Of a stretch of DNA of 64,000 nt, positions 1,558 to 56,960 are shown in pieces. The stretch comes from a virus: IMG/VR virus record IMGVR_UViG_3300017698_000019, positions 1-64,000 of that record; one strand, 5' to 3'. Position numbers and translations under genes: made by a program. Under the pieces are notes generated by a model. The model saw only the letters and a program-made list of their open reading frames with translations. It did not search any database and was not told the origin of the DNA. Every line of letters begins with the position of its first letter. Positions within the stretch are counted from its first letter, which is position 1.

Positions 1558-2829
1558 ATGAAGATACTCGTCGCACTTCACAAGTGCATGGACCTCGGCG
1601 GTATTATCGACCATACCGAGCAACTCATTGGCGGTCTCCAAGACCTAGGCCATGATGTTCACCTCAAAGAACTCGTATGGGCGTTCAATGCGCCTGCTCA
1701 ACGTAAGACCGCAGACTGGAGCATCGGCCCAAGCGGTATCCCCCATCATCAAGGAAAGGGCTGGAACTTTGACCGGAAAGATCGTATTCCTTATCGTGGT
1801 GGGGCTGCTCTTAGTGGAGCATCACAAATCCTCCAGCAGTACGACCTCATCATTTGGTCTGTGCCAGTTCCAAGCAAAAACAAAGACAATCTCGGTAATG
1901 ATGACTGGCCAGAGTTGTACGACCTTCCAGAGCGCGTTAAGCAGATTGCGTTCGTCCACGATGGGAATGCAGTGAAAGGAGCAGGTCATCTGCTGGCCAT
2001 TCAGGACCGCCTCTCTGGGCTGGCCTGTGTTCACCCCTGCGCCCTCAATGGTGCCGCCTTCGCCGACGTCCCTCGCACAATGGTTGTCAATCCGCAGCTT
2101 AATCCGGTGCGTCCTTACGCCAAGTGGGAACAGAAGTCTCCCGGCTTCGTAAACATGCAGACCTTCAAGGCGTGGAAGCATGTTCATGAACTGGTCGAAG
2201 CAATCCATTACATGCAGCCAAAGGAAGCCGACGAGTTGCGTGAGATTGCTGGCTTGGGCATCGAGTATCGTTACATGACCAGCGAGGACAAGTGCAAGGA
2301 CGCTTATTTCCATGCTGATGGAGAGAAGTTCTGGGACGCTGCTCTCGAAAACGGCATGACACACCATGATTATTGGGACAAGGACCAAGTTGACAATTAT
2401 CTCAATGAAGCCCGTGTCCTTGTCGATCCGTCATGGTCCAACAACTATTCCAAAGTCGGTGGTCACTTCAACCGCGTGGCTGTAGATGCAATGATGCGAG
2501 GCTGTGTAGTCGTAGCGCGGCAGAAAGGGATGGGTTCGGAATTGTTCCAGTCCGGAGAGCATTATATCTCCATCCCTGAAGATGCTGATGCTCAAGAGTA
2601 TGCAGACCTCGTCCAGTATGCCAGCGGCATCGCACCGAAGACAGCGCAGCGCATGATTGATGCGAACCGCGAAATCCTACCCATGTTTGATCGAAAGACT
2701 GTGGCGCAACGTGTCATTGATCTGGCGCATGGTGAGATCGAAGTGGAGGAAGTCCAAGGGACTGCAACCCATGCAATGAAAACCAAAGTCGAAGATATGT
2801 TGTTCGACCATTTCGGAGTTATACTATAA
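1558..2829 (+). CDS. GT-B fold glycosyltransferase (GT4-like), candidate DNA/base glycosyltransferase
   Basis: 423 aa. MKILVALHKCMDLGGIIDHTEQLIGGLQDLGHDV is a typical GT-B N-terminus. C-terminal HFNRVAVDAMMRGCVVVARQKGMGSELFQSGEHY resembles the donor-binding region. Context: between the aGPT-Pplase-like and ThyA-like genes. Confidence 0.6.
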   Translation: MKILVALHKCMDLGGIIDHTEQLIGGLQDLGHDVHLKELVWAFNAPAQRKTADWSIGPSGIPHHQGKGWNFDRKDRIPYRGGAALSGASQILQQYDLIIWSVPVPSKNKDNLGNDDWPELYDLPERVKQIAFVHDGNAVKGAGHLLAIQDRLSGLACVHPCALNGAAFADVPRTMVVNPQLNPVRPYAKWEQKSPGFVNMQTFKAWKHVHELVEAIHYMQPKEADELREIAGLGIEYRYMTSEDKCKDAYFHADGEKFWDAALENGMTHHDYWDKDQVDNYLNEARVLVDPSWSNNYSKVGGHFNRVAVDAMMRGCVVVARQKGMGSELFQSGEHYISIPEDADAQEYADLVQYASGIAPKTAQRMIDANREILPMFDRKTVAQRVIDLAHGEIEVEEVQGTATHAMKTKVEDMLFDHFGVIL

Positions 2830-3827
2830 TGGATGTCATCACAGTTCGCAACGTCTCAGACGCCCTCGTCTTGGGCACGAAGGTTATCAATGATGTCGGG
2901 GTCCGTCGAGACAGCCGCAATGGTCCTGTCAAGGTAATGCCGATGCCAGTCACCACGATGTATGAAAGCCCAAGAGAAAGGGTCATGCTGCATCCTGAAC
3001 GCGACTGCAATCCTTATTTCCACTTCATGGAATGTCTCTGGATGCTGGCAGGTCGTCGCGACGTGGCCTGGATCTCACAGTTCAGCAAGAACATCGGCAA
3101 CTATACTGATGATGGGATCAATTTCCATGGTGCCTACGGTTATCGCTGGCGCAATCATTTCGATGTCGATGGTGGTGTTCTGGATCAACTTGGAACTATC
3201 GCAGCGTTGCTGAAAAAGAACCCTGATGATCGCCGCACTGTCCTTCAAATGTGGGACGCAAATGCTGACCTTGGTCTCGATGGCAAGGACTTCCCTTGCA
3301 ATCTGGTCATCACCTTTCGCATCAACCCCAACGGCAAATTGGACATGACTGTGTTCAATCGCAGTAACGATATGGTCTGGGGTGCTTACGGTGCCAACGC
3401 AGTTCACATGTCATTCCTGCAAGAAGTTATGGCCGCTTGGATCGGTGTGCCTGTCGGCTTCTACTGGCAGATCAGCACGAACTTCCACGCATATCTTGAC
3501 ACTCTGGCCAAGGTGGAACCCTTGCTGCACAAGCCTGATGGGAAGTCACCTTACGAACTAGGTGAGATAGAACCGTTCCCGGTGGTCGGCACTGACATCG
3601 ACACGTGGCATTCCGAACTGAATATGTTCATGGATGAAGGTCCTGTGATGGGATACACTGATCCATTCTTCAAGAAGGTGGCCGTGCCGATGCTACAGTC
3701 GTGGCAAGCCTGGAAGAACAAAGATGCTCCTGACTTCATGGACAGTGCTGTCTACTTCGCAGATCGCATTGCCGCTACCGACTGGCGTCGGGCCTGCATG
3801 GAATGGCTGGAGCGTCGGGACGTATGA
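2829..3827 (+). CDS. ThyA-family pyrimidine C5-methylene transferase (candidate dUMP hydroxymethylase or divergent thymidylate synthase)
   Basis: 332 aa. Motifs: RDCNPYFHFMECLWMLAGR, AYGYRWR, DQL..LKKNPDDRRTVLQMWD, catalytic Cys in DFPCNLVITF, and NRSNDMVWGAYGANAVH. The Asn is retained, implying uracil specificity. Confidence 0.8.
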   Translation: MDVITVRNVSDALVLGTKVINDVGVRRDSRNGPVKVMPMPVTTMYESPRERVMLHPERDCNPYFHFMECLWMLAGRRDVAWISQFSKNIGNYTDDGINFHGAYGYRWRNHFDVDGGVLDQLGTIAALLKKNPDDRRTVLQMWDANADLGLDGKDFPCNLVITFRINPNGKLDMTVFNRSNDMVWGAYGANAVHMSFLQEVMAAWIGVPVGFYWQISTNFHAYLDTLAKVEPLLHKPDGKSPYELGEIEPFPVVGTDIDTWHSELNMFMDEGPVMGYTDPFFKKVAVPMLQSWQAWKNKDAPDFMDSAVYFADRIAATDWRRACMEWLERRDV

Positions 3828-4456
3828 CTGTGGAAACAAGTCCTGAGGACTACTGCGACGTTCACGGTAAATACAAACCCTGTGAAGGTTGTGAAGAGCC
3901 AGCCGTAATCTATCCGATAGATGGCTTGGTGAACAAAGTCAAATTCACAAGGGAGGCAGCGGCGGTTCGTCGCTGTCATACCCTACCGATCATCGGTGAA
4001 TATATCGTCGGTGGTCACTCCTACAACATGCTCTCGATGCTTCGTCTGTTGCATCCAGACCCACCTATCCGCCTCGTTTGGGCTATCCAGGAACACGACG
4101 TGCCTGAACGTCTCACCGGTGATATACCTGCGCCGACCAAGTGGTTCAAGATTGTGGACAAAGGTCATCTAACCCAAGCAGAGATGTCTATCAACAAAGA
4201 AGTCTTCGGATGGGTCGCTGAACTACAGTTGACCGAAGAAGATCTCAAGTGGCTGCGCGGCTTGGATATCTTGGAACTGTATCTGTTCTGTAAAGATCAG
4301 TTGATGCTAGGCAACCAGAATGTTCTTGTGATGAAGGCTCGCATTGAGCGTTTCATCAATCGTGAGAAGCATATGTTTGCGCCAGAAGTTCTGAACTTCT
4401 ACTTCTCCCTCCAAGATCACTCGTGGCATATGTGCCCTGATCTCGGAGACGTCTAA
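3824..4456 (+). CDS. HD-domain phosphohydrolase, YfbR-like 5'-deoxynucleotidase (putative)
   Basis: ATGA overlap with the ThyA-like stop. RCHTLP..GEYIVGGHSYNMLSML and QEHDVPERLTGDIPAPTKWF resemble YfbR H...HD...D motifs. Confidence 0.6.
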   Translation: MTVETSPEDYCDVHGKYKPCEGCEEPAVIYPIDGLVNKVKFTREAAAVRRCHTLPIIGEYIVGGHSYNMLSMLRLLHPDPPIRLVWAIQEHDVPERLTGDIPAPTKWFKIVDKGHLTQAEMSINKEVFGWVAELQLTEEDLKWLRGLDILELYLFCKDQLMLGNQNVLVMKARIERFINREKHMFAPEVLNFYFSLQDHSWHMCPDLGDV

Positions 4457-5343
4457 TGAGCCACGATCGTGATGTCAAATACTGTGAATGTGGTAAGTCC
4501 CTATGGGACGGAGCAACTTGCAATTGCAAGGAATTGAAGATGGAATATATGTCCGGACCTATTGATCGTAAATGCACCTGCGGTCAAGAAGTATTCGTTA
4601 TCGGCAAAATATGGTGCCAACTATGTGAACCAAAGGAAGAACTACCTATGAAAGCGACACAAGTCGGCGGAGACCACTATCAAGCGAACTATCAACATTG
4701 GGATTGGGCTGGTGATGTCCGCCTCGGTTACTACGAGAGCGCGGCTTCCAAGTATGCCTTCCGCTGGTACAAGAAGAACGGCATCGAAGATTTGGACAAA
4801 GCACGGTCTTACCTGCTGAAAGCCAAGGAGATGTTCTTGGAAGGCCGTTGGGACAACCAATGTCTGCACGTTGATAGCTGGCCGCTGGCTCGTGACAAAG
4901 CTGAAAGTATGTTCGCAACCTTCTGCGACGAGGCAACTGTGCCGATGGTCGAGGCTGATTTGTGTCTTGCAATTGCCCAATGGAAGAATGACGTGGACCT
5001 CAGCGTTATCATTGGCCAATTGGGAGCGCATATAGAAGCCGCACAGGCGCAAGTTGATGCTGGCGGCACCCTTGGCCCATTGGCACCCCTAGCCGCGCCA
5101 CAGGCGGCAAAAACAGGGGGTAGCGGACAAGCTGGTGGCACTACCACCCACCCACCCGCATCCAGCGCGTCCGTAGAGCTCGCAATGAAGCAGTTTGGCC
5201 CGTGTCCATGTGGCTGCGGACGTCCTCGCGCCAAGAACCAGAACTATGCGACGCTGGATTGTGCGAAGAATGCTCGCGCTGATGAACTCGGTAAAGGGAC
5301 TAACCACCCTGCTCCTTTCGGATATGTTCCCGGTGATCTATGA
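4456..5343 (+). CDS. DUF3310 (SaV-like) phage protein with N-terminal Cys-rich segment
   Basis: 295 aa. VGGDHYQANYQHWDW...AASKYAFRWYKKNGIEDLDKARSYL is the DUF3310-type block. N-terminus carries CxC/CxxC clusters. The central A/P/G/T-rich linker is encoded by GC-rich repeat copy 5075..5181. Confidence 0.6.
   Translation: MSHDRDVKYCECGKSLWDGATCNCKELKMEYMSGPIDRKCTCGQEVFVIGKIWCQLCEPKEELPMKATQVGGDHYQANYQHWDWAGDVRLGYYESAASKYAFRWYKKNGIEDLDKARSYLLKAKEMFLEGRWDNQCLHVDSWPLARDKAESMFATFCDEATVPMVEADLCLAIAQWKNDVDLSVIIGQLGAHIEAAQAQVDAGGTLGPLAPLAAPQAAKTGGSGQAGGTTTHPPASSASVELAMKQFGPCPCGCGRPRAKNQNYATLDCAKNARADELGKGTNHPAPFGYVPGDL
5075..5181 (-). repeat. GC-rich repeat element copy (core CTCTACGGACGCGCTGG on minus strand), in-frame inside a CDS
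   Basis: 5162..5178 CCAGCGCGTCCGTAGAG is the reverse complement of the 17-mer at 27014..27030. The GC-rich stretch upstream (CCTAGCCGCGCCACAGGCGG...) resembles the copies at 56846..56960 and 45001..45030. Confidence 0.7.
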
Positions 5344-5825
5344 GCAGGTTCGCAACATTTGTGAAATGGCTGGTGACACCCAAGAGAAAAGCTGACTTTC
5401 TCATTGGGCCGAACCCTCATGATCCTTACATGAGGCGATGGTATCTCATTCGTCGGAACAACAAGTTCAACATCTATCTGCATCAGATGCTGCATGATGA
5501 TGACGATCAAGCACCGCACGATCATCCATGGTGGAGCCTATCTCTTTGCCTGTCTGGTGTGATCAAGGAATATGAGACACCGGCCGAACCGAACTTCCTT
5601 GGGTCCAAGTTGCGGATCAACATTATTAAGAAGGGCATGTGGAAATGGCGAGGTAAAGAATACATTCACCGCTTGGTTCTTCCAGAGGGTGAAGCCTGGA
5701 CTTTGTTCATTACGGGACCGAAAGCGAGAGTTTGGGGTTTTCATTGCCCCAAGGGCTTTGTAGTATGGCATAAGTTCTTGGACAGCCGTGCCAAGACTGG
5801 TCGTGGTTGCGGGGAAATGGAATGA
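5340..5825 (+). CDS. hypothetical protein
   Basis: 161 aa. ATGA overlap upstream. Conserved-looking block YLHQMLHDDDDQAPHDHPWW. Function unknown. Confidence 0.6.
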   Translation: MSRFATFVKWLVTPKRKADFLIGPNPHDPYMRRWYLIRRNNKFNIYLHQMLHDDDDQAPHDHPWWSLSLCLSGVIKEYETPAEPNFLGSKLRINIIKKGMWKWRGKEYIHRLVLPEGEAWTLFITGPKARVWGFHCPKGFVVWHKFLDSRAKTGRGCGEME

Positions 5826-6220
5826 TCATTAAGGGATGGGCCTCGGTCTGGGGTGAATGCGACAGTCACAGTGATATAACAGTGAAAGGAAGCTTTAAGA
5901 AAGATCTCAAGAAGTTCACTTATACAAGACCGATGCTTCTGCACCATGAGAAATCACAAATCATCGGCCGCTGGGACTTGATTAAAGAGAAGAAGTATGG
6001 TCTTTGGTGTGAAGGCACAGTGCTAGACGATGACGCTATCTTCTGGATCAAAGAACACTGCCTCTCTGGACTATCTATCGGCTACGCTGGCCGAAGCGAA
6101 GACAGAAAACGCGGTCTACGCAGATTGAAGCGGCTTGAGTTGGAAGAGATCTCTGTGACATCAATCCCCGCTAACAGGGCGGCAAGAATTATGGAGATCA
6201 TTGATGGCAAAGCAGACTAA
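5822..6220 (+). CDS. HK97-family prohead protease-like domain protein (Peptidase S78/U35-like), orphan location
   Basis: ATG 5822 overlaps the upstream stop (ATGA). IKGWASVWGECDSHSDITVKGSFKK...PMLLHHEKSQIIGRW...KYGLWCEG...LSGLSIGY...LEEISVTSIPANRAARI follows the S78 pattern, including the H and S positions. Confidence 0.6.
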   Translation: MIIKGWASVWGECDSHSDITVKGSFKKDLKKFTYTRPMLLHHEKSQIIGRWDLIKEKKYGLWCEGTVLDDDAIFWIKEHCLSGLSIGYAGRSEDRKRGLRRLKRLELEEISVTSIPANRAARIMEIIDGKAD

Positions 6221-8834: not shown

Positions 8835-9374
8835 ATGAAACATTGTATGCTGGACTTGGAGACTTTCGGCACTGGCGCAGGCTGCGTTATCCGCTCCATC
8901 GGCGCAGTCGTTTTCGACCCCAGAACGCCTTCCTTGGGCAAAGAGTTCTACAAGAACATCACCGAAGAAGATCAAATCGAATTGGGTGCTTTCAAAGACC
9001 CCAGCACGGTCTCATGGTGGGAAAAGCAAGGTCAGTCTGCTAAAGACGTCCTAGAGCCTGACCAAGTCAGCTTGAAGATGGCGGTCAATGGCTTTGCAAA
9101 CTTCTGGAAAGACAACCGCTTGAAGTTCGTATGGTCCCAAGGTGCAAACTTCGACAGTGTCTTGTGGGAAGCGACCTGCAAATTTGTCGATGTCAAGCCG
9201 CCGTGGCAGTTCTACAACACCCGTGACACTCGGACTGTCTACGATGCGGCTGGTCTCAACACCAAGACCATTCCTCGTCAGGGTATCTATCACTACGCCC
9301 TGGACGACTGCAAGCATCAGGTCCGGTGTGTCTACAAGTCCTACATGATGATTGACAAAGTGGAGAAGCGTTAA
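8835..9374 (+). CDS. DEDD-family 3'-5' exonuclease (Rv2179c-like)
   Basis: ATG 8835 follows the GAGGGA RBS. MLDLETFGT (ExoI), ANFDSVLW (ExoII) and YHYALDDCKHQ (ExoIII H-x4-D). Confidence 0.7.
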   Translation: MKHCMLDLETFGTGAGCVIRSIGAVVFDPRTPSLGKEFYKNITEEDQIELGAFKDPSTVSWWEKQGQSAKDVLEPDQVSLKMAVNGFANFWKDNRLKFVWSQGANFDSVLWEATCKFVDVKPPWQFYNTRDTRTVYDAAGLNTKTIPRQGIYHYALDDCKHQVRCVYKSYMMIDKVEKR

Positions 9375-9829
9375 TGTCCATTCATGATATGTTCATGGGA
9401 CACGCCGTTCACGCCAGCAAGTTCAGCCCTGATCCCTCCACGAAGGTGGGATCGGTGGTTGTCCTTGAAGGCAAGGTGTTCTCAGTTGGTTGGAACCAGT
9501 TTCCTACAGGTGTCGCCGAGACCGAGGAGCGGTGGGAAGATCGTGCCCAAAAGTATCCAAGGGTGATCCACGCAGAAGCTGATGCGTTGGTCGCAGCCGC
9601 GAGGATGATGCGGCGAGAGCGGCCTCTTCTTGGGTTCGAGGACGCCACCCTCTACACCACTGAATTTCCCTGCTGTGCTTGCTGCGGATTGATTATCCAA
9701 CATGGCATCAAGAAAGTTGTCTCACAAGATCTGGCCAGTGATTACGCTGAAAGATGGGCGAAAGAGATTGAGATCTCCAAGTCAATGTTCAGTGAGGCGG
9801 GAGTGGAATTAGAGGTAATTCCCCGATAA
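9374..9829 (+). CDS. dCMP deaminase (zinc-dependent cytidine/deoxycytidylate deaminase fold)
   Basis: HAEADAL and PCCACCGLI zinc-binding motifs. 151 aa. TAATG coupling. Confidence 0.85.
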   Translation: MSIHDMFMGHAVHASKFSPDPSTKVGSVVVLEGKVFSVGWNQFPTGVAETEERWEDRAQKYPRVIHAEADALVAAARMMRRERPLLGFEDATLYTTEFPCCACCGLIIQHGIKKVVSQDLASDYAERWAKEIEISKSMFSEAGVELEVIPR

Positions 9830-10301: not shown

Positions 10302-10591
10302 TATATCGTCGTCGCATGGGTCTCAGCCAGAAAGCTATGGCCAAGAGTTTCGGTATAACTCGCCGTATCTATAGCGAGAAAGAAGCAAACGGCACGATTA
10401 CTCTTCCCGGCTTCATGGTTGTGGTTGAGCCGATTACAGGTGCCGAGCAGTGTCTTATCTGGCGTCGCCGTTCAGGCTGGACACAGCAGGCTTGCGCTGA
10501 TCTTATGGGGATCACGCGCTACTGGTACAATTTGATGGAAAACGGCAAAGCGCCTTCTGATAAATTGGAGGCTTTCTGGAATGAAGGGTGA
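10193..10591 (+). CDS. tandem helix-turn-helix (XRE-like) DNA-binding protein
   Basis: Two repeats: LSEGERALVYRRRMGLSQKAMAKSFGITRRIYSEKEANG and ITGAEQCLIWRRRSGWTQQACADLMGITRYWYNLMENG. ATG 10193 is the only in-frame start that keeps helix 1, so it overlaps the upstream gene by 109 nt. Confidence 0.55.
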   Translation: MGQYDETPDDSGSGTLLPERPGNGETLELSEGERALVYRRRMGLSQKAMAKSFGITRRIYSEKEANGTITLPGFMVVVEPITGAEQCLIWRRRSGWTQQACADLMGITRYWYNLMENGKAPSDKLEAFWNEG

Positions 10592-13007
10592 GTCTCAAAG
10601 AGCAATTGACTTCCTAAGGAAGTTTTATCCTAAGGGACCTTGGCTCCTTACTGCGATCCAGACAGACCGCAAAGCAATCGACACAAAACCATTCGGCCCT
10701 AAGTCTGAAGAGGAATGCCTTTTCTGGCTTGAGAAATATAACGGCGAGCGGAACATCTACTTTACGGTGAACCAACCGAACCTCGCTTTCCTGAAATCAG
10801 ATAAAGTCAAGAAGCCGAACAAAGAAGATATGTTCGAAGCCCACTGGCTACACGTTGATGTCGATCCAGAAGAGGCTCCGGCAGATGAGACTGATATTGA
10901 CGGTTTCCTTAAAATGGAACGTGAGCGTGTCCTAAGCGTACTCACTGATCGCCTGCCAAAAGGTATCGAGAAGCCGACGGTTATCCTATTCTCAGGCGGT
11001 GGCTATCAAGCCTTCTGGAAGCTGGACAAACCTGTTAAGATTGACGGGACCGAAGCTGCGTGGACTGAGTTCGAACTCTATAACAAGCGTCTAGAGCAAG
11101 TTTTCGGAGGCGATCACTGCCACAACGTAGACCGCATCATGCGTCTTCCTGGGACAGTCAATGTTCCTGATGCAAAGAAGATTAAAAAAGGTCGCAAGAA
11201 GGAACTATCTCGCCTTCTCGAGTTTGATACCAAAAATGTCTATAGTCTTGAGCAATTCAAGAAAGCCCAAGCGGTGCAGACATCTGCTCCCGGACGCCAT
11301 GATGGCGGCGAATACGGTATCAAGGTTGAAATTCCCGGTAATGTGGAACGCATTCAAGACCTCAGCGAACTGGACGTGTGGGACGTCCCTGACAGAGTCA
11401 AGGTTATTATCGCCCAAGGGCAACACCCTGATCAACCGAAAGAAGGCGACAATTCCCGCTCAGCATGGCTTTTTGACTGTGTCTGTGCGCTGGCTCGCTG
11501 CAATGTCCCCGACGGTGTCATATTCGCTATCTTGACAGACCCTGAATGGGGTATTGCAAGCAGCGTCGTAGAACTGAAAGGCGGCGCTGAGAAATACGCA
11601 ATCCGCCAGATCAAGCGAGCCAAAGAATACAGTGAAGATCCACACCTTACAATGATGAACGACCGCCACGCTATCATTGGTAATATCGGAGGCAAGTGTC
11701 GCGTCATTGAGGAGATCGAGGATGATGTTCTGCATAGGAGCCGCATCACGATGTCCAGCTTTGAGGATATCCGAAACCGATACGGAAATATTCAGATCCA
11801 AATTGGTTCGACCGATAAAGGTGATCCAGTGCATGTTCCCTTGGGCAAGTATTGGATCAACCACCGCTTGCGTCGCCAATACGATACGATGAAGTTCATG
11901 CCACAGGGCGACCAACCTGGAGTCTACAACTTGTGGCGTGGATTTAATGTAGAACCTATACCCGGAGACTGCTCCATATATCTCGAACACCTAAGAGAAA
12001 ATGTGTGCAGCGGGGTTGAAGAACATTATGATTATCTCATCAAATGGATGGCGCGTGTCGTACAGACACCAGCAAGTCCAGGTGAAGTTGCCATTGTTCT
12101 CAGGGGCGGAAAGGGTACTGGTAAAGGCTATTTTGCGAGAACTTTCGGACGTCTGTTTGGCCGACATCATCTTCACGTCGCCAATCCATCCCACCTTGTC
12201 GGAAACTTCAACGCTCACCTTAGAGATGTTATCAGCTTGTTTGCCGATGAAGCCTTCTTTGCTGGAGATAAACGTCATGAGTCTGTGCTTAAGATGCTCA
12301 TCACTGAGGACAGTATACCGATTGAAGCCAAAGGCATCGACACAGAGCCGTATCCAAACTATGTTCACCTCATCATGGCCTCAAACGACCCGCATGTCAT
12401 TAGGGCAACTGGAGATGAAAGGCGTTACTTTGTTCTAGACATGGGTGAGAACCGTAAGCAGGATGCAGAGTTCTTTTCCTCACTCACAAAACAAATGGAT
12501 AATGGTGGATATGAAGCATTGCTCTACCATCTCCAAAACGTGGATATAAGTGAGTTCCAAGTCCGGAACGTGCCACAGACTGATGCACTGCAAGAGCAGA
12601 AACTCATGTCAATGGGCGTTGAAGAGGAATGGTGGTATCACAAACTGCATGACGGTCGTGTCTTGGAAAACCACGATACATGGATCCGTGACGTGCCAAC
12701 AGACGCTCTGGAAAAAGACTATACGAACTATGCGGATAAATGGAAGTTTGCTCGGAGAGGTAACGCAACTCTCTTGGGTCGTTTCCTTAACAGAGTTGTT
12801 CCGCATATCAACAAAATGCAAAAGCGCGTAACAGTTGAAGAGTATGATCAAGAGACTGGGCAGCCACACAGAACCAAGAAACGAATGTATCATTATGACC
12901 TTGGTGATCTGGAGAAATGTCGTGCATCCTGGGACAAAGTCTATGGAGAGCGAGAATGGCCAACACCTGTTGAACTTGATCTCGGAGAAATAGAGGTTCC
13001 ATTCTGA
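10581..13007 (+). CDS. primase-polymerase / SF3 (P4/D5-type) helicase fusion
   Basis: 808 aa. Prim-pol-like N-terminus (IYFTVNQP, HVDVD, IMRLPGTVN). Walker A VLRGGKGTGKGYF and Walker B-like ISLFADEA. C-terminus ends in the acidic tip LDLGEIEVPF. Confidence 0.85.
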   Translation: MKGESQRAIDFLRKFYPKGPWLLTAIQTDRKAIDTKPFGPKSEEECLFWLEKYNGERNIYFTVNQPNLAFLKSDKVKKPNKEDMFEAHWLHVDVDPEEAPADETDIDGFLKMERERVLSVLTDRLPKGIEKPTVILFSGGGYQAFWKLDKPVKIDGTEAAWTEFELYNKRLEQVFGGDHCHNVDRIMRLPGTVNVPDAKKIKKGRKKELSRLLEFDTKNVYSLEQFKKAQAVQTSAPGRHDGGEYGIKVEIPGNVERIQDLSELDVWDVPDRVKVIIAQGQHPDQPKEGDNSRSAWLFDCVCALARCNVPDGVIFAILTDPEWGIASSVVELKGGAEKYAIRQIKRAKEYSEDPHLTMMNDRHAIIGNIGGKCRVIEEIEDDVLHRSRITMSSFEDIRNRYGNIQIQIGSTDKGDPVHVPLGKYWINHRLRRQYDTMKFMPQGDQPGVYNLWRGFNVEPIPGDCSIYLEHLRENVCSGVEEHYDYLIKWMARVVQTPASPGEVAIVLRGGKGTGKGYFARTFGRLFGRHHLHVANPSHLVGNFNAHLRDVISLFADEAFFAGDKRHESVLKMLITEDSIPIEAKGIDTEPYPNYVHLIMASNDPHVIRATGDERRYFVLDMGENRKQDAEFFSSLTKQMDNGGYEALLYHLQNVDISEFQVRNVPQTDALQEQKLMSMGVEEEWWYHKLHDGRVLENHDTWIRDVPTDALEKDYTNYADKWKFARRGNATLLGRFLNRVVPHINKMQKRVTVEEYDQETGQPHRTKKRMYHYDLGDLEKCRASWDKVYGEREWPTPVELDLGEIEVPF

Positions 13008-13318
13008 TGGCTTGTGAAGCACCATGTTTTGATTGTCCTTACCTAAGAGGAAGCGACAAACTAAAAATCGCCGACAATGTCATATTCGATTTCGTGTTCG
13101 AACACCACACCGAAGACGGAGTCGGTGGCGGCTACTCTCCTCATATCTGTCCAGAACAAGAAGATGTTTGCTTTGGACAATTGCAGATGATAGCCAATGG
13201 ATTGAAAACAGGACTGGACCCATTTTCGGAAATGGGTGAGATAGTTTACTCCATGTCTCCCAACACAAAGGACTATTTCCATGGCCCTTGGGAGTATATG
13301 GCCCATCATGAGGCTTAG
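13007..13318 (+). CDS. hypothetical Cys-containing protein
   Basis: 103 aa. TGATG coupling. Contains the repeat AAAAATCGCCGACA at 13063..13076. Confidence 0.55.
   Translation: MACEAPCFDCPYLRGSDKLKIADNVIFDFVFEHHTEDGVGGGYSPHICPEQEDVCFGQLQMIANGLKTGLDPFSEMGEIVYSMSPNTKDYFHGPWEYMAHHEA
13063..13094 (+). repeat. AAAAATCGCCGACA-family repeat (copy inside CDS)
   Basis: AAAAATCGCCGACAATGTCATATTCGATTTCG is ~85% identical to 14835..14868. The 14-mer is identical at 14835 and 29186. Confidence 0.75.
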
Positions 13319-13321
13319 TTA

Positions 13322-13436
13322 GGAGCCCTACGGACGCGCTGGAGGGGCGTTAGCGCCCTACCCTACCACCAGCACCACCACAGGCCGCACCCTATGCCCT
13401 GCCCCACGCCACAAGGCCTCCGGCGGCGCTGGATAT
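13322..13436 (+). repeat. GC-rich repeat element copy (core CTACGGACGCGCTGG), intergenic
   Basis: 13328..13342 is identical to 27016..27030 and to the reverse complement of 5162..5176. CCCTATGCCC at 13390 is shared with 56857. Strongly GC-rich compared with its flanks. Confidence 0.75.
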
Positions 13437-13443: not shown

Positions 13444-13472
13444 TGGTCAATTTGCAACCGCTTTGCTATACT
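13444..13472 (+). promoter_or_regulatory. sigma70-like promoter (phage cassette type)
   Basis: TGGTCA-17 nt-TATACT. TAGGAG RBS and ATG 13500 follow. Confidence 0.55.
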
Positions 13473-13499: not shown

Positions 13500-13895
13500 A
13501 TGGCTACTGTCGAACCACCAGAGGTTGATCCATTTGAGATCGATCTCCAAGAAGCCGAGCCAGAAAAAGAGACCATTTTGCAGTTCTCTGATCTTCTGGA
13601 TATGAATGAGGACGGAACAGACTGCATTACTGACGAGAACTTGGATTTCATCTGGCCGCGTGATCCAGATCAAGAGCCAGCTATCGTCGTCGGCAAGTCA
13701 TTTGTCATGCCGCCTGCCTGCACTGGTCCTTTCATACCATGCGAAGAGAAATATGGTCGGGAGACCTGTTTGAAGTTTGTCTTCGATGGTCCTCCACTAC
13801 CTCCGTCTCACACTGTTGTTCCCTTGGGTTCTAGCGGCCTTATGTTGGCGAGCGCTCTGGCGATTGCTTTCACAGTCAAGAAATTCTCCACATGA
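13500..13895 (+). CDS. acidic protein with C-terminal hydrophobic tail anchor
   Basis: 131 aa. Very acidic N-terminus. The C-terminus VVPLGSSGLMLASALAIAFTVKKFST is a motif plus TM helix plus basic end. No signal peptide. Confidence 0.6.
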   Translation: MATVEPPEVDPFEIDLQEAEPEKETILQFSDLLDMNEDGTDCITDENLDFIWPRDPDQEPAIVVGKSFVMPPACTGPFIPCEEKYGRETCLKFVFDGPPLPPSHTVVPLGSSGLMLASALAIAFTVKKFST

Positions 13896-14836
13896 AACCT
13901 ATGCTGGCTGGAAAGTATGATCCAGTAAAGGTAGAGAAGAAACTGCCTTTGCTGGGTCAACTGAAATACGATGGTATCCGAGTATTCATTCGAGATGGCG
14001 TCGCATATACTCGGAGTATAAAACCTGTTCGCTCAACAGAACTTCAATCATGGGTTGCTTGGAACAAAGACTTCCTGGAAGGCATGGATGGGGAAATAAT
14101 CTGTGGAGACCCAACGGCACAAGGATGCTTCCAAAGAACTAGCAGTTTCGTAATGAGTTACGATAAACTGGATATATTCACATTCTACGTGTTCGACAAG
14201 TGGGACGAGCCTTCCGTATTCACTGATCGTTTCGCTGTTGTTGAAGAGGTTGCTGGTCAATGGATTATGAATAGTCATGATCAACCTCGTATGGTTGCAG
14301 CAGATACTCGAGAAATGTTAACAATGGAAGATGTGAACGCATTTCATGAGGAAATGATTGCCCAAGGGCAGGAAGGTATCATCCTGCGAGATCCTCATGC
14401 TTACTACAAATTTGGACGAGGCTCGCCTGTGAAGTGTGAGTGTATCAAAATGAAAGAAGGTGGCTGGGTTGACACAGAATGCAAAATCCTCGACTTCCAC
14501 GAACAGATGCACAACGCCAATGAAGCCACGCTTGACAATCTCGGTTACACGGAACGCTCAGGGCATAAAGAGAACCTTATCGGAAAAGACACTCTCGGCG
14601 CTATTGAAGTTAGCGGAAGCTTCGAGGATGGAACTCCTTTCACGTGCAGAGTCGGAACAGGACTAGACGACGAAATCCGGCAAAAAGTCTGGGATCGCCG
14701 ACAAGACTATATTGATAAAGTCGTAAAAATGAAATATTTCACCGTCGGCATCAAAGATAAACCGAGATTTCCAACCTTCTTGGGTTTCCGTGACAAGGAT
14801 GACATGGACGCAGAGCAGTTGGATCTGTTTTCGTAA
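13892..14836 (+). CDS. ATP-dependent DNA ligase
   Basis: Motif I GQLKYDGIRV (adenylation Lys), motif IV EGIILRD, motif V-like VVKMKYF. 314 aa (T7-size). Confidence 0.85.
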   Translation: MKPMLAGKYDPVKVEKKLPLLGQLKYDGIRVFIRDGVAYTRSIKPVRSTELQSWVAWNKDFLEGMDGEIICGDPTAQGCFQRTSSFVMSYDKLDIFTFYVFDKWDEPSVFTDRFAVVEEVAGQWIMNSHDQPRMVAADTREMLTMEDVNAFHEEMIAQGQEGIILRDPHAYYKFGRGSPVKCECIKMKEGGWVDTECKILDFHEQMHNANEATLDNLGYTERSGHKENLIGKDTLGAIEVSGSFEDGTPFTCRVGTGLDDEIRQKVWDRRQDYIDKVVKMKYFTVGIKDKPRFPTFLGFRDKDDMDAEQLDLFS

Positions 14837-14873
14837 AAATCGCCGACATAGTCATATTGATTTTCGATCTGTA
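14835..14873 (+). repeat. AAAAATCGCCGACA-family repeat (intergenic copy)
   Basis: AAAAATCGCCGACATAGTCATATTGATTTTCGATCTGTAGG aligns with 13063..13094 and 29186..29226, including CGATCTGT. Confidence 0.75.
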
Positions 14874-15242: not shown

Positions 15243-15989
15243 ATGGCAAAACTTCATGAACTGTTGGCCGTGATGGCTGACACCACCAACGCAGCGACCG
15301 CTGTGAACAAAGAGACAGCCGCTGTCTTTGCGAAAAAGCCCGACCACTTCCGCGGTTTTTCCAAGACTGTTCGTTACTTCGATGAAGGCCGCGCTGGTGA
15401 GAACACCGACGAGACCAAACAGATGGTCACGACGGTCGCCGACAAGCTGGATCACACGTTCAAGGTGACAGGCCGTCACTACGATGCTCTCCTGCAACTG
15501 GAAGAAGCCAATGGCCGCGCCAAGGCAGACCTGATCGTTGATGGCGTGACCATCATGAAAGACGTCCCAGCGACCTTCCTCTTGGGCATGGAAAGCCGAT
15601 TGAAATCTGTCCGTGAAACAATCCTGGCAATCCCTACGCTCGAGATGTCAACCAAGTGGGAAAGCGACACCGTTGCTGGCGAAGGAATGTTCCGCGCCGA
15701 GCCTGTTGTTGCCATGAAAGGCGAGAAGCAGTTGAAATCTCGCATCCTCGTGGAACCCACGAAAGAACATCCGGCCCAAGTGGAACAGTGGACCGAAGAC
15801 GCCGCTGTTGCACGGATCGAAACAACTCATACCTCCAGCATGATCACGCCACACGCAAAGTCGGCGATGCTGATGAGGACCGACAAAATGATCTCTGCTG
15901 TGAAGAAAGCCCGCCAACGGGCGAACACTGTCACAGTTGAAGATCTCCACATTGCCGATGGTATCTTCGGATACATCATGGGCTCCTAG
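15243..15989 (+). CDS. conserved hypothetical protein
   Basis: 248 aa. MAKLHELLAVMAD...PDHFRGF...VPATFLLGMESRL...EHPAQVEQW look like conserved blocks, but I cannot name the family. Immediately upstream of the tRNA-like module. Confidence 0.65.
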   Translation: MAKLHELLAVMADTTNAATAVNKETAAVFAKKPDHFRGFSKTVRYFDEGRAGENTDETKQMVTTVADKLDHTFKVTGRHYDALLQLEEANGRAKADLIVDGVTIMKDVPATFLLGMESRLKSVRETILAIPTLEMSTKWESDTVAGEGMFRAEPVVAMKGEKQLKSRILVEPTKEHPAQVEQWTEDAAVARIETTHTSSMITPHAKSAMLMRTDKMISAVKKARQRANTVTVEDLHIADGIFGYIMGS

Positions 15990-16124
15990 ATCCCATAGGG
16001 GATAGACTGAGACTGAGACTAACCTAAGCGGTGGAAACTATCACGATAGAATACAATTCCGTGACTCATACTTGAGAGACTTATGCCCCTCAATGTGAGA
16101 ACAAGAGGAGACCAAAGATAAGCG

Positions 16125-16231
16125 GTTCTTTTTCCCGAAGGGTCGTCGGTTCGAATCCGGCCCCGCCATCCAACACCCAATCGTTGGACTGCTGGCGGGT
16201 AGCTCAGTGGTAGAGCATTCGTAATAAGAGT
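16125..16231 (+). ncRNA. circularly permuted tRNA-like RNA module (YrlA/Y-RNA-like tRNA mimic or permuted/two-piece tRNA)
   Basis: The order along the strand is CGAA (16136-39), GGGTC, the T-arm GTCGG-TTCGAAT-CCGGC (16145-61), CCCGCCA-T-CCA (16162-72) and a 6-bp linker hairpin. Then come TGGCGGG (16193-99, 7/7 complement), TA, the D-arm GCTC-AGTGGTA-GAGC (16202-16), A and TTCG (16218-21). U8, A14, G18G19, A21, G53, T54-C56, A58 and C61 equivalents are all present. There is no anticodon loop. Confidence 0.6.
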
Positions 16232-16309
16232 AACGGCACCGCACTAATCGAGGGTTCTCTGATCTGGTTGCTCTTAGATGAGCGCTTGATTTTTAATCAA
16301 AACCAAAAC

Positions 16310-16420: not shown

Positions 16421-17092
16421 ATGGATCCACCCCCTTTCAAAACAGGTGACGAGGTCAGGCTCAAAACAGGCAAGTCCAAGATCATCGTTCTGGAAGTGGA
16501 TTACTTCGAAGAAGGCGATAAGATCCCTCACTACGCGAAGCGCAATTGGGGAAATCGCTATGTCCAGGGAACAGGCCGATACAAGCCGAAGACTGGATGG
16601 TATATCCGCTTCACTTACGCGAGTTCAGTGCATTATGCAGACCACGATAGGAAGTGGCGCGAGGCAGAGGACTTTCAATTTTATCACGACCAACCCAAGA
16701 AAGAAGAGATCAGAATGGACGTACTCTACCAAACGAAAGAAGAGAAACCCCGCTTCGGTGTTCACCGTGGCGTGAATGGCAATGGCGAATTCATCCTCGA
16801 GATGAAGGGCGTTGATGCGAATTATGAAGCATTCCCTCAGGATCAGATCGAAGAAGTCCTGCCATATACTGTTGAACTGACCGAACTGCGCGTTGATCCT
16901 TCCTGCAAGCCGAAGTCGATCCATGTGCTGGCCAAGAAAGGTCAGGTCGAGAAGGCCGACGTCATGCTGGAACTCAACTCCGGCATCTTCTGGCGCGTCA
17001 CCAAGCCTGACAGCAAGTGCCGTTCACCGAGGGAAAACAAATCCAAGTGGATGAAGGTTCCTCTCACCGAAGTTATGTTCGGCGAACAGTAG
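16421..17092 (+). CDS. hypothetical protein
   Basis: 223 aa. First gene after promoter 16364. No motif recognised. Confidence 0.6.
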   Translation: MDPPPFKTGDEVRLKTGKSKIIVLEVDYFEEGDKIPHYAKRNWGNRYVQGTGRYKPKTGWYIRFTYASSVHYADHDRKWREAEDFQFYHDQPKKEEIRMDVLYQTKEEKPRFGVHRGVNGNGEFILEMKGVDANYEAFPQDQIEEVLPYTVELTELRVDPSCKPKSIHVLAKKGQVEKADVMLELNSGIFWRVTKPDSKCRSPRENKSKWMKVPLTEVMFGEQ

Positions 17093-26217: not shown

Positions 26218-26495
26218 CGCAATTGTATATGGGCAGAACGCATGAAGAGATTGCCGCAGCTTTGGCGCTGTGGGATCAACATAAGAAACCCAAGAGCGAG
26301 GCACTTGCTGGTCTCGGTCGGGTGTACCACGATGGAATTCTCAATCCTTACCCTGCGCTGAAAGAAGCAGTGGGATCAGGGATGGTCATGATGGCCGAGA
26401 TAACCTTGGAGAATGACACACTGCGTCGTGAACGGGAAGACCTCCGTATGTTCTGCAAGGGCATGGCCAACAATATCGAGAAGATGCTCAAATGA
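26214..26495 (+). CDS. hypothetical protein
   Basis: 93 aa. ATGA coupling. Confidence 0.55.
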   Translation: MTQLYMGRTHEEIAAALALWDQHKKPKSEALAGLGRVYHDGILNPYPALKEAVGSGMVMMAEITLENDTLRREREDLRMFCKGMANNIEKMLK

Positions 26496-26677
26496 TTACA
26501 CTGATTTCACTCATACTACACATCTTGGCGCTGTTCTCAGCTGCGGTGTTTGGCTCGCTGGTCAAGGAGGACTTCGAGAAGGAGAAATCCTCCATCCTCA
26601 TGTGGGCTGGTTGCACTGTCGGGTTCTTTATTCTGGCCACGTTACTCCAACTCTATGTGGCTTGGCCATGGAACTGA
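26492..26677 (+). CDS. small membrane protein
   Basis: 61 aa. Two TM helices (ISLILHILALFSAAVFGSLV, ILMWAGCTVGFFILATLLQLYV). Confidence 0.55.
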   Translation: MITLISLILHILALFSAAVFGSLVKEDFEKEKSSILMWAGCTVGFFILATLLQLYVAWPWN

Positions 26678-26850
26678 AAGCCAAAGAAGGTTGTTGCGAG
26701 GATGCCAGTCCTATGTCCAATGAGTTCTATATCCCATGCAACAAACCAGCCGTGATGAATGTTCAGTTTGCCAGTGGCGAGGGACCTTATCGCATGTGTG
26801 AAGTCTGTGGATGGCACGCTGTTAAGAACAGAGGAGCGAAAGAGGTATGA
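26668..26850 (+). CDS. small Cys-rich protein
   Basis: ATG 26668. MELKAKEGCCEDA...IPCNKP...RMCEVCGWH (zinc-ribbon-like). Confidence 0.45.
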   Translation: MELKAKEGCCEDASPMSNEFYIPCNKPAVMNVQFASGEGPYRMCEVCGWHAVKNRGAKEV

Positions 26851-27080
26851 CTGTCTATGATGAAAGAGGCAAGATTCCCAACTTCGTCTTCGATAAGGTC
26901 GAGATGGTGCATCAACCTACTGGTCTCAAAGTTAAACTCATATCAGGCGGTGAGGCCAGCTTGCGCCTAGCACACAACGCCCTTAAAGTGATGGTCAGGG
27001 ACCATTACAAGGGCTCTACGGACGCGCTGGATGCAGCGCCCCGCACCACTACACCACCAACGGCACCAGAGGGGTCCTAG
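26847..27080 (+). CDS. hypothetical protein whose C-terminus is encoded by a GC-rich repeat element
   Basis: 77 aa. The last ~22 aa (GSTDALDAAPRTTTPPTAPEGS) and the stop lie within repeat copy 27012..27078. Confidence 0.55.
   Translation: MTVYDERGKIPNFVFDKVEMVHQPTGLKVKLISGGEASLRLAHNALKVMVRDHYKGSTDALDAAPRTTTPPTAPEGS
27012..27078 (+). repeat. GC-rich repeat element copy (core CTCTACGGACGCGCTGG), 3' end of a CDS
   Basis: 27014..27030 is identical to the reverse complement of 5162..5178. Followed by CACCACCAACGGCACC, similar to 56866..56876. Confidence 0.7.
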
Positions 27081-29133: not shown

Positions 29134-29226
29134 TTTTCGCCGACAAGGATTGTCCGATTCGGTCTCCGGGAAGGACTCGGTTTCCAAAAATCGCCGACAT
29201 GAGTTGTCCGATTGACCGTCGATCTG
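29133..29226 (+). repeat. two TCGCCGACA-family repeats directly after terS
   Basis: ATTTTCGCCGACAAGGATTGTCCGATTCGG (29133) and AAAAATCGCCGACATGAGTTGTCCGATTGACC..CGATCTGT (29186). Confidence 0.75.
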
Positions 29227-29294
29227 TGTCTTTCCTCATCGTCCTCCATCTTCGTCTTCATCTTCTTCCGTATATCTGTAGATCTCGGAGATCG

Positions 29295-29339
29295 TGGAAA
29301 TAACCCGAGATGGAAATGATTGGAAATAACTGGAAATAA
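29295..29339 (+). repeat. four TGGAAATRA direct repeats (iteron-like)
   Basis: Copies at 29295, 29311, 29321 and 29331. The last three have a 10-nt period and lie just upstream of promoter 29365. Confidence 0.7.
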
Positions 29340-29345
29340 AGTTGT

Positions 29346-29356
29346 TTTTGCCGACA
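29346..29356 (+). repeat. TTTTGCCGACA variant repeat abutting promoter UP region
   Basis: One mismatch to the TTTCGCCGACA core. Followed by AATAGAAC-TTGTCT. Confidence 0.5.
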
Positions 29357-29364
29357 AATAGAAC

Positions 29365-29393
29365 TTGTCTTGGTCCGAGCCATATGCTACTCT
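29365..29393 (+). promoter_or_regulatory. sigma70-like promoter (phage cassette type)
   Basis: AAATAGAAC-TTGTCT-17 nt-TACTCT, then the AAAGGCTACCAACC-ATG leader. Confidence 0.5.
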
Positions 29394-29422
29394 GAGGGTA
29401 CATTATATAAAGGCTACCAACC

Positions 29423-29766: not shown

Positions 29767-29818
29767 TCCCTCTCCACCCTCAGCAGGATCTTCGCTTTCC
29801 TCTTGGGATCATGGCTCC

Positions 29819-56847: not shown

Positions 56848-56960
56848 CCGCCCCGCCCCTATGCCCCACCAACGGGCCATAAAGGCCGCAGGCGGACGCC
56901 CTGTGGCCGCGCTGGCTGCACTGCACCCCGCCAACCAACCACCAGCACGTCCGTAGAGGT
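56846..56960 (-). repeat. GC-rich repeat element copy (core CTCTACGGACGTGCTGG on minus strand), inside the lysis cassette
   Basis: 56942..56958 CCAGCACGTCCGTAGAG. CCCTATGCCCC at 56857. Fills the holin-spanin intergenic gap. Confidence 0.7.

Follow-up and report, generated by a model that had tools for sequence, protein, structure and literature searches.

The window (the whole 64,000-nt stretch of viral DNA analyzed here) carries a gene at 4456..5343 (+ strand) whose product is assigned to the T7 gp1.7-like, or DUF3310, “nucleotide kinase” family. This assignment is based on DUF3310 and on PHROG nucleotide-kinase families, with the DUF3310 match of the encoded protein (E=4.7e-4) falling below the Pfam cutoff. 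From its N terminus, the protein comprises Cys motifs, a helical core (approximately amino acids 70-205), a disordered linker, a Cys-cluster insert, and a C-terminal HPAPFGY motif. A first-pass annotation had pointed to a GC-rich repeat inserted in this gene at 5075-5181. The block is indeed GC-rich (0.673, whereas GC is 0.511 elsewhere in the gene and 0.507 in the window overall), and only 0.6% of 107-nt windows are equally so. The reading frame remains open through the block, and the peptide previously quoted for it is encoded there.

The block ends in a 17-mer (CCAGCGCGTCCGTAGAG) that was said to be the exact reverse complement of 27014..27030. This is correct, as the 17-mer occurs in the 64,000-nt window at 5162-5178 (+ strand) and at 27014-27030 (- strand) with no mismatches at either site. 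It is also found at 13326-13342 (- strand) and 56942-56958 (+ strand) with one mismatch each. The last of these had been given as 16/17, as we observe. The other had been listed as a 15/15 match at 13328..13342, which is genuine but extends to 16/17 over 13326-13342. Four occurrences compare to approximately 0.01 expected by chance, and none of 100 shuffled sequences gave four matches. These numbers, along with the likeness of the sites over 62-70 nt, rule out chance or compositional convergence as the source of the repeat.

Although the repeat itself is borne out, the 17-mer is only part of its unit, which spans 62 nt (70 nt in our covariance model, which includes flanks) and has an arm-spacer-arm layout, with 26 nt of spacer between a near-invariant arm P (CCAGCGCGTCCGTAGAG, 17-23 bp) and an inverted, degenerate arm Q. 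The right arm holds 28.8 bits of information compared to 20.5 bits for the left arm, and the centers of the P and Q half-sites lie ~44 bp apart, or roughly four helical turns. When applied to the whole window, the covariance model finds exactly four copies with scores of 63-75 bits and no further significant match: copy A (5116-5185, + strand), copy B (13319-13388, - strand), copy C (27007-27076, - strand), and copy D (56896-56965, + strand). The P arm accordingly lies on the + strand in copies A and D and on the - strand in copies B and C. As the first-pass annotation proposed, the repeat has intergenic copies (B and D) as well as in-frame intragenic ones, the latter being copy A in ORF 4456..5343 and also copy C in ORF 26847..27080, which had been missed. 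The P arm is read in different reading frames in copies A and C.

Copy A begins with the degenerate left arm (GGTAGCGGACAAGCTGG, 5118..5135, + strand), which encodes GSGQAGG. This is followed by the 26-nt spacer (5136..5161, + strand), which is C-rich on the + strand and encodes GTTTHPPA, and by the conserved arm (the 17-mer plus C; 5162..5179, + strand), which encodes SSASVE and reaches codon identities of up to 0.97. The peptide encoded by copy A is predicted to be disordered (pLDDT <50, residues 216-244). Where aligned homologues share an amino acid, codon identity reaches 0.81 in copy A (492/611), compared to 0.50 for the N-domain, 0.54 for the most conserved columns of that domain, and 0.43 for the HPAPFGY motif. 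Synonymous sites of copy A are unusually conserved.

Several features flank this copy. Upstream, a weak extra arm (CTAGCCGCGCCACAGGCGGC, 5089..5108, + strand) can be read from the sequence on weak evidence, and by eye it is alike at 14/20 positions to an arm of copy B (CCAGCACCACCACAGGCCGC). Directly 3′ of the conserved arm is CTCGCAATG, whose ATG corresponds to Met244; this internal ATG after copy A is present only in the window and in contig L182. A variable Cys-cluster module that starts with MKQFGPCPCGCG (5185..5298, + strand, delimited by homologue alignment) begins right after copy A. It is shared only by the window protein, P0002, and P0003 (L182 contig), whereas in the remaining homologues this position is empty or occupied by a different insert, making it a recombination junction.

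Copy B lies between genes. Its conserved arm (CCAGCGCGTCCGTAGGGC as read on the - strand; 13325..13342, - strand), which was located by the covariance model and by alignment, begins 7 nt past the stop codon of ORF 13007..13318. The 26-nt spacer (13343..13368) separates it from the degenerate arm (CCAGCACCACCACAGGCC, 13369..13386, + strand), which keeps the same degenerate form across relatives. A third arm (CCAGCGCCGCCGGAGGCC as read on the - strand; 13415..13432, - strand) has a CCGGAGG core that keeps a constant distance of 37 nt to the degenerate arm in 8/10 relatives, whereas the neighboring intergenic DNA is gap-rich in the alignment. Immediately downstream of copy B is a conserved sigma-70-like promoter with an extended -10 element (TGGTCA-17-TATACT; 13444..13472, + strand), which precedes the gene at 13500..13895. 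Approximately 300 bp upstream, the gene at 10581..13007 (808 amino acids) encodes a RepB′ primase N-domain (PF16793, 26.6 bits versus a cutoff of 24.3) joined to DUF5906, a primase-helicase arrangement.

Copy C resides in an ORF for 77 amino acids (26847..27080, + strand), which shares an ATGA overlap with the ORF at 26413..26850. It encodes the last 22 residues of this protein (GSTDALDAAPRTTTPPTAPEGS, followed by the stop codon). By eye, differences among orthologues of this ORF look three-periodic, and the position of the stop codon is the same in L004 and L005. The conserved arm (27013..27030, - strand; 17-mer match and covariance model), the spacer (27031-27056), and the degenerate arm (CCAACGGCACCAGAGGGG on the + strand, 27057-27074) follow in this order. 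Copies C and A are exactly complementary over 22 nt (27013-27034 versus 5158-5179). Copy D is again intergenic and on the + strand, with its degenerate left arm (GCCCTGTGGCCGCGCTGG) at 56898..56915, a 26-nt spacer at 56916..56941, and its conserved arm (CCAGCACGTCCGTAGAGG) at 56942..56959. The GAGG at the 3′ end of this arm is 7 nt before the ATG at 56965 of an Rz-like spanin gene and is likely its Shine-Dalgarno sequence.

We then mapped the distribution of the element among related phages. The block in the DUF3310 gene is present in 20/20 aligned homologues (52-84% identity to the window protein). In all close homologues, as well as several distant ones, the peptide and its nucleotide core are both retained. 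A linker peptide kept without the nucleotide core, which the first-pass annotation regarded as the mark of compositional convergence, is therefore not the pattern observed, and convergence of this type can be set aside. The block is absent only from very distant homologues, namely L015-L017, L192, L193, and isolated YuA/Ab18/FP1-like phages. Since only these lack it, any insertion would have happened just once, long ago, at the clade's base, and the presence pattern would fit either one ancient gain or a loss. No isolated phage that we searched has the element.

Copies B, C, and D are found at orthologous positions in related phage contigs. In eight genomes a B-type copy is located ~7-8 kb downstream of copy A, two further contigs also have a B-type copy, and C-type and D-type copies are each kept in two relatives. 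Within the ~20-kb pieces of relatives, every positional orthologue recovered carries the element, with no empty site in the clade. Searches with single proteins neighboring copies C and D returned only one true relative and an unrelated GC-rich phage (L240). All 34 copies fit the 70-nt model without insertions or deletions and with a spacer of 26 nt, although these copies represent a modest number of truly independent lineages. Across 13 sequences of the non-coding copies (B and D), pairwise identity falls from 0.85 in the P arm to 0.62 in the Q arm and 0.44 in the spacer. Purifying selection acts on the conserved arm, which shows no decay.

The element is also an exchange point, or recombination junction, among relatives. 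As far as the element, the L007 protein matches the window protein at 89% identity; beyond it, the L007 protein has a C-terminal tail common to L008, L045, and L051. Flanking sequences diverge at copy C in L005 and at copy D in L043. In L014, copies A and B have common 18-nt flanks and the spacer is flipped in both; the common flanks point to gene conversion.

Based on these comparisons, the element is a cis-acting nucleotide signal that is maintained by purifying selection at four syntenic sites in an uncultured siphophage clade. Our best explanation, which we hold tentatively and with modest confidence, is that it is a fixed-geometry bipartite recognition site in duplex DNA for a candidate sequence-specific protein. 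This putative protein, either phage-encoded or a conserved host factor, would bind strong (P) and weak (Q) half-sites centered ~44 bp apart. Where the signal overlaps genes (copies A and C), it dictates which residues make up a disordered linker or tail, and it works in both orientations and in more than one frame. Mixed strands and differing frames of the P arm are to be expected for duplex DNA and are awkward for a single RNA function. The DNA site reading is further favored by the small number of copies, all with positional orthologues, by synonymous constraint over a disordered peptide, by P arm identity far above that of the spacer, by the lack of indels in 34 copies, by the third arm of copy B at its fixed 37 nt, and by the failed RNA tests described below. 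Copy B has a stop codon on one side and a conserved promoter on the other and is next to a primase-helicase gene, which suggests a role in replication initiation, fork control, or transcriptional control.

Several considerations count against a DNA recognition site. No candidate binder is evident among the annotated neighbors, which are enzymes or proteins of unassigned function. Also, 44 bp from center to center is unusual for a simple dimer, and four dispersed sites are unlike a classical origin, pac site, or operator set. Furthermore, G·U-compatible mismatches outnumber A·C mismatches 44:22 on the strand reading CCAGCGCG, and G-C to A-T double changes are seen at one stem position (A copy of L011 and B copy of L186). 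Both observations would also fit a folded single strand, but symmetric changes are also expected from a symmetric protein site or from template switching. A broader proposal is that the element represents a new class of phage cis-element, a bipartite inverted-repeat site of fixed geometry that has colonized reading frames, determines disordered protein segments in two genes in either orientation, acts as a genome-wide control point (for replication, nicking, or transcription), and doubles as a hotspot for C-terminal module swaps and spacer flips, a functional and domesticated viral counterpart of Rickettsia palindromic elements (RPEs). We consider this proposal speculative and unlikely as a whole.

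The strongest of the competing explanations, which we nonetheless judge to be unlikely, is that the arms pair in a transcript to form a stem-loop that governs mRNA processing, stability, or translation. Examples would include masking of the spanin Shine-Dalgarno sequence at copy D, a hairpin in copy B that marks a 3′ end past the stop codon, or a site of the RNase III type. The two arms can pair at 74.6% of positions when in register compared to 35-51% when slid, the long stem is part of the minimum-energy fold for copies A (+ strand), B (- strand), and D (+ strand), and the G·U excess noted above points the same way. So do the placement of GAGG in the copy D arm ahead of a start codon, the position of copy B just past a stop codon, and the analogous extended start-associated sequences (ESAS) of Cluster K mycobacteriophages, which are suspected translation signals (PMC3203893). 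However, covariation (0.142 versus 0.153 in shuffles) shows no excess, and folding z-scores on both strands (-0.43 to +0.50 relative to dinucleotide shuffles) indicate that the stems are not unusually stable. None of the four sites matches Rfam, tRNA, or tmRNA models, and none has an intrinsic terminator with a U-tract. The better-paired strand at copy B is antisense to all neighboring genes, with no - strand promoter found there, and copy A lies within translated sequence. Moreover, a large open loop would not need a spacer of fixed length and free sequence.

Very unlikely, in our estimation, is a hairpin formed in single-stranded DNA, either as a priming signal for the RepB′-type primase-helicase (like ssiA/ssiB of RSF1010) or as a nick or fork-pause site, with two per strand. 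The RepB′ domain encoded ~300 bp from copy B is suggestive, as RepB′ requires a pair of specific inverted sequences located on complementary strands (PMC8567376). Pairing is better on the + strand for copies A and D and on the - strand for copies B and C, but a 2:2 split of this kind has a chance probability of 37.5%. A DNA role would fit with the independence of the element from reading frame and from coding status. However, ssiA and ssiB are 40 nt long, form a compact hairpin from nt 7-27, share a single origin, and have been described only from IncQ plasmids (PMC8567376), whereas the element has a 26-nt loop, arms without an internal hairpin, stems that are not unusually stable, and sites 8-30 kb apart.

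The first-pass annotation favored an RPE-like repeat, and a version of that idea is a selfish palindromic repeat (RPE-, REP-, or MITE-like) that has become an immobile relic tolerated as harmless linker peptides. To this we assign a lower probability again. The element is palindromic, has intergenic copies and in-frame copies in two genes with opposite orientations, and is missing from distant homologues; its arm includes CGTC and GTAG. Bacterial REPs and RPEs have been recorded inside genes, with replication and repair genes as frequent hosts (PMC3733652). However, recent or mobile insertion is contradicted by the block in every aligned homologue, the orthologous positions of copies B, C, and D, and a total of only four copies, with no presence/absence polymorphism seen within the clade. 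Neutral relics would decay, in conflict with purifying selection on the P arm, its conservation far above that of the spacer, and constrained synonymous sites. Flanks of the four copies, read directly, have no target-site duplication or other direct repeats abutting the arms, and no transposase or RAYT is present among the ORFs scanned. GTAG sits inside the paired arm and is replaced by ACAG, CTAG, or TCAG in many copies, and thus is not an end tag. A search of host genomes, as the first-pass annotation proposed, provided no matching repeat family: among the matches listed for the degenerate arm pattern in 596 Gb of bacterial genomes, hits are scattered singles without a partner arm, and the multi-copy ones are IS transposase genes (an Opitutaceae genome and Vitiosangium).

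The least probable of these alternatives is that the arms are kept mainly as short homology patches for module exchange or gene conversion with no dedicated binding factor, as the tail switch in L007, the Cys-cluster module starting exactly after copy A, the flank divergence at copies C and D, and the L014 flanks and flipped spacers could suggest; selection for evolvability is weak and would hold neither a 17-23-bp arm invariant nor a spacer length, mosaic joints at gene ends are commonplace in phages, and 17-23 bp is short for efficient homologous exchange.

The closest described analogue of the element is the ESAS of Cluster K mycobacteriophages, in which a spacer separates two imperfect 17-bp inverted repeats that differ in how well they fit the consensus, and whose function is unknown (PMC3203893). 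Both elements have few copies per genome that are syntenic among related phages, both have one arm nearer to consensus, and copy D, like ESAS, ends just ahead of a start codon. Unlike ESAS, however, the element lacks the 13-bp SAS (GGGATAGGAGCCC), precedes a gene start in only one of four copies, has two copies within coding sequence and one after a stop codon, and occurs in both orientations; its sequence and host lineage are also unrelated. ESAS spacers are variable (PMC3203893), whereas the spacer here is fixed at 26 bp.

The element resembles RPEs and intragenic REPs in being palindromic, intergenic as well as in frame, encoded as tolerated peptide segments, and found as old insertions at orthologous sites (PMC3733652). 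In bacterial chromosomes, the copy numbers of those families run from tens to thousands, and REPs have an unpaired GTAG/CGTC end tag, a 5-13-bp stem, and a 2-20-nt loop, with RAYT transposases for GTAG REPs (PMC3733652). In contrast, the present element has four phage copies, 18-nt arms, a 26-nt spacer, no tag or transposase, and purifying selection. Unlike a MITE, it has no target-site duplications beside its arms.

Signals that overlap phage genes have precedents. In lambda, ori falls where gene O encodes a linker, and in P22 the pac site lies inside gene 3. In SPP1, oriL is inside gene 38 and a second copy, oriR, is ~13 kb away (PMC6316719). Like the SPP1 and lambda origins, the element overlaps a reading frame in a replication region and has related copies elsewhere, and it is linker-coding as in lambda, although protein binding is putative here. 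Those origins have direct repeats (iterons) and an AT-rich unwinding element in the gene of their own binding protein, whereas the element has inverted repeats, 67% GC, four sites, and a kinase-like gene and a 77-amino-acid ORF as hosts. The likeness to ssiA/ssiB of RSF1010 consists of specific inverted sequences on complementary strands with a RepB′-family primase domain encoded nearby, but the copies are dispersed and differ in architecture from the 40-nt, adjacent, IncQ-specific ssi sites (PMC8567376).

These findings define a compact cis-element (17-23-bp invariant arm, 26-bp spacer, four sites) in a clade of widespread uncultured marine and environmental siphophages related to YuA/Ab18-like phages. 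To our knowledge, no regulatory or replication signals are known for this clade. Conserved “linker” amino acids in a phage protein can stem from a DNA signal rather than from protein function, and caution is warranted when annotating motifs in disordered regions. If a binding partner is found, it could reveal how replication or expression is organized in these phages and how short conserved sites promote module exchange.

Several more specific identities were also considered and rejected. YuA-type phages use sigma-54. A sigma-54 promoter (GG-N10-GC, by eye) has the correct spacing only in copy B of the window and in L008 and L002, and it fails in L007 and L052. A conserved A AAA ACA GGG stands ahead of the stem, but programmed -1 frameshifting there is unlikely, given that the heptamer is non-canonical as a slippery site and is missing from copies B, C, and D. 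Pairing in trans between + strand RNAs of copies A or D and those of copies B or C is perfect over 22 nt for A and C of the window, but 3-4 mismatches are present in L008, L186, and L011. Finally, as regards a Rho utilization site or G-quadruplex, each of the four window copies is rich in C on the + strand, with fractions of 0.37-0.41 for C and 0.27-0.30 for G. This does not hold generally, with polarity reversed in L014 and L218 and G-tracts missing from most A copies.

The 17-mer CCAGCGCGTCCGTAGAG occurs at four sites in the window: exactly at 5162-5178 (+ strand) and 27014-27030 (- strand), and with one mismatch at 13326-13342 (- strand) and 56942-56958 (+ strand). Chance alone would give about 0.01 matches, and four were reached in 0 of 100 shuffles. 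The first-pass annotation had noticed this repeat, including a match near 13.3 kb, which exists but agrees at 16 of 17 positions rather than the 15/15 reported. It had also correctly described a GC-rich block at 5075-5181 (GC content 0.673 vs 0.507 for the window; top 0.6% among 107-nt windows) and an open frame through it, as the gp1.7-like (DUF3310) ORF 4456..5343 spans the block and encodes the peptide quoted there.

The finding goes beyond a 17-mer. Extension of the four sites revealed that it is one arm of a bigger unit, ordered as a degenerate arm Q (e.g., GCCTGTGGTGGTGCTGG), a 26-nt spacer, and arm P, which is nearly invariant (CCAGCGCGTCCGTAGAG). A covariance model trained on 23 copies was then run over the window and gave four significant matches and none besides: copies A (5116-5185, +), B (13319-13388, -), C (27007-27076, -), and D (56896-56965, +). 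At copy B there is also a third arm (13415-13432). In-register pairing is possible at 74.6% of positions, compared with 35-51% after sliding, confirming that the arms form an inverted repeat.

Related viral and metagenomic contigs hold positional orthologues of copies B, C, and D, and diverged B copies lie ~7-8 kb downstream of A in loci L007, L008, L010, L011, L014, L182, and L186, as in the window. All copies (34/34) fit a 70-nt model without indels, and the CCGGAGG core of B's third arm keeps a constant 37-nt distance in 8 of 10 copies, with gap-rich intergenic DNA adjoining. Pairwise comparison of 13 sequences of the two non-coding copies, B and D, gives identities of 0.85 in the P arm, 0.62 in the Q arm, and 0.44 in the spacer. 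The spacer provides an internal neutral control, so purifying selection acts on the arms. The element is an inverted-repeat cis-element that is ancient, under selection, and fixed in geometry; it occupies four syntenic sites and overlaps two reading frames.

One of these frames is the gene that holds copy A, whose homologues were checked for the block as had been proposed; all but very distant ones carry it. The peptide GPLxPLxAPQAAKTGGSGxAGGTTTQxxASSASTEV is present in 20/20 homologues (52-84% identical to the window protein), and the nucleotide arms are also found in the genes of these homologues, so a linker peptide lacking the nucleotide core was not seen, and copy A is not a recent insertion. 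The arms are retained in L014, L018, and L218 despite N-domains just 29-41% identical to the window's, and in L045, L048, and L051 despite markedly unlike middle domains. The element is missing only in very distant homologues (L015-L017, L192, L193, and isolated YuA-, Ab18-, FP1-, and RHph_I65-type phages). If copy A was inserted at all, this would have been a single ancient event.

Codon identity, defined as the same codon given the same amino acid, is 0.81 (492/611) across the element (AAA ACA GGG ... GAG GTC GCA), compared with 0.50 for the N-domain, 0.54 for its most conserved columns, and 0.43 for the C-terminal HPAPFGY motif. The sliding 8-codon maximum, 0.97, is at SASVELAM. Because synonymous sites are conserved in the element, these comparisons show a constraint on nucleotides. 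Residues 216-244, which connect a confidently predicted helical domain to the C-terminal parts, have AlphaFold pLDDT values below 50, and protein-level reasons would not normally conserve a linker predicted to be disordered.

Copy C, initially taken to be intergenic, lies within the 77-aa ORF 26847..27080, which is joined by ATGA to the preceding gene and has its C-terminal 22 residues encoded by the copy. Differences among orthologues of this ORF appear three-periodic by eye, and L004 and L005 share the position of the stop codon. Copies A and C, two of the four, are therefore translated, with P arms that point in opposite directions and are read in different frames. Copy B starts 7 nt past the stop codon of ORF 13007..13318. 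Directly downstream is a sigma-70-like promoter with an extended -10 (13444-13472, +; upstream sequence GGATAYAAAGGTTTGGTCA), which is kept in most relatives, with orthologues in L007, L008, L010, L011, L052, L182, and L186. Copy D is flanked by a small membrane-protein ORF and an Rz-like spanin gene, and its P arm supplies the GAGG ahead of the ATG at 56965.

Tentatively, the element would serve as a DNA-level recognition site for a protein, the reading that we prefer and regard as quite possible. Information content is 28.8 bits in the right arm and 20.5 bits in the left. Independence of orientation and frame, a strong and a weak half-site, and a spacer of fixed length but free sequence make duplex DNA recognition simpler than a single RNA function. 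A DNA site inside coding sequence has a precedent in the lambda ori in gene O. Another is SPP1 oriL/oriR (PMC6316719), and the closest described analogue of the element is the ESAS of Cluster K mycobacteriophages (PMC3203893).

That the element acts as an RNA hairpin is unlikely. On the strand reading CCAGCGCG..., G.U mismatches outnumber A.C mismatches by 44:22, and copies A_L011 and B_L186 show G-C to A-T double changes at a single position of the stem; both favour a folded strand, with few independent events behind the counts. Such symmetric changes are also expected from a symmetric protein site or template switching. Covariation is 0.142 vs 0.153 in shuffles (no excess), folding of all four copies, whichever strand is taken, is no better than that of dinucleotide shuffles (z -0.43 to +0.50), and no Rfam family, tRNA, or intrinsic terminator was found at the four sites. 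No - strand promoter was found at copy B, where the better-pairing strand is antisense to all nearby genes. A hairpin in single-stranded DNA for priming or nicking, tied to a RepB'-type primase, is distinctly doubtful; the genome encodes a RepB'/DUF5906 primase-helicase, and the folding results apply to either strand.

Somewhat more doubtful still is a relic selfish palindrome. By published REP/RPE criteria (PMC3733652), the RPE-like behaviour proposed earlier stands for sites both between and within genes and fails for size, end tag, copy number, and transposase. The ORFs scanned include no transposase, no direct repeats are visible flanking the four copies, and no isolated phage carries the element. 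A search of bacterial genomes with the degenerate arm pattern gave scattered hits without a partner arm and IS transposase genes, with no matching family among the matches listed. Together these provide evidence against an active or recent mobile element.

Least probable is a pure recombination linker. The variable part of copy A's gene lies directly past the element. The protein of L007 matches the window protein at 89% identity as far as the element and from there has a tail common to L008, L045, and L051. A Cys-cluster module is confined to the window protein, P0002, and P0003 (L182 contig); the remaining homologues have other inserts or lack one. Copies A and B of the distant relative L014 (10436-10505 and 17099-17168) share an identical 18-nt flank, GGGCGCTCTGAGCAGTCG, and both have reversed (G-rich) spacer polarity, and because of these features they give evidence for a putative gene conversion between copies, with the spacer flipped between inverted arms. 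The kinase-like protein has lineage-specific Cys-rich (zinc-ribbon-like) modules at both ends (4456-4647 and 5185-5298), and unrelated Cys-rich inserts occur at the same post-element point in different homologues (e.g., P0013 and P0022).

The window is a lytic-type siphophage genome on a 66,259-bp contig. Its nucleotide-metabolism and replication module includes thymidylate-synthase-like, HD, gp1.7-like kinase (host gene of copy A), DNA polymerase A, exonuclease, dCMP deaminase, primase-helicase, and ligase genes, alongside a block of small unknown genes and terminase, portal, tail, and lysis genes. The DNA polymerase shares 49-54% identity with those of Pseudomonas phages Ab18 and PaMx11 and with that of 'phage Simon'. 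The thymidylate-synthase-like, HD phosphohydrolase, gp1.7-like kinase, and dCMP deaminase set (2829-4456 and 9374-9829) resembles the nucleotide-modification toolkits of YuA/M6-type phages, in which hypermodified thymidine is present. Although it sits in the replication module, a 137-aa ORF (5807-6220, +) flanked by the DNA polymerase and a cysteine-dioxygenase-like gene gives matches to head-maturation-protease PHROGs (E=7.5e-26).

Between ORFs 15243..15989 and 16421..17092, the stretch 16122-16245 (+) matches the full Rfam model of YrlA, a Y RNA-like sRNA (RF02553), at a score below threshold (40.9 bits vs a gathering score of 69; E=1.4e-5). The 18-nt motif GGATAAGTAGAACTTGTC, with a GACAA...TTGTC dyad, has 6-7 occurrences (1487, 9824, 16351, 18335, 21673, 24241, and 29352), on the + strand every time and mostly right ahead of a gene start within the early and middle region, and probably represents a family of phage promoters or operators. 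Repeats of a second family, (T)AAAATCGCCGACA..., at 13062-13094, 14834-14866, and 29133-29871, comprise four copies clustered directly past the small-terminase gene and others within ORF 13007..13318 and at the ligase gene end, and could be a packaging or promoter signal. Finally, in the 197,896-bp contig JGI24723J26617_10000032 (L181-L183), the homologous gene repeats each 64,823 bp. This spacing makes the contig a concatemer assembly of roughly three units of a ~64.8-kb relative and suggests that the genome is circularly permuted or terminally redundant.
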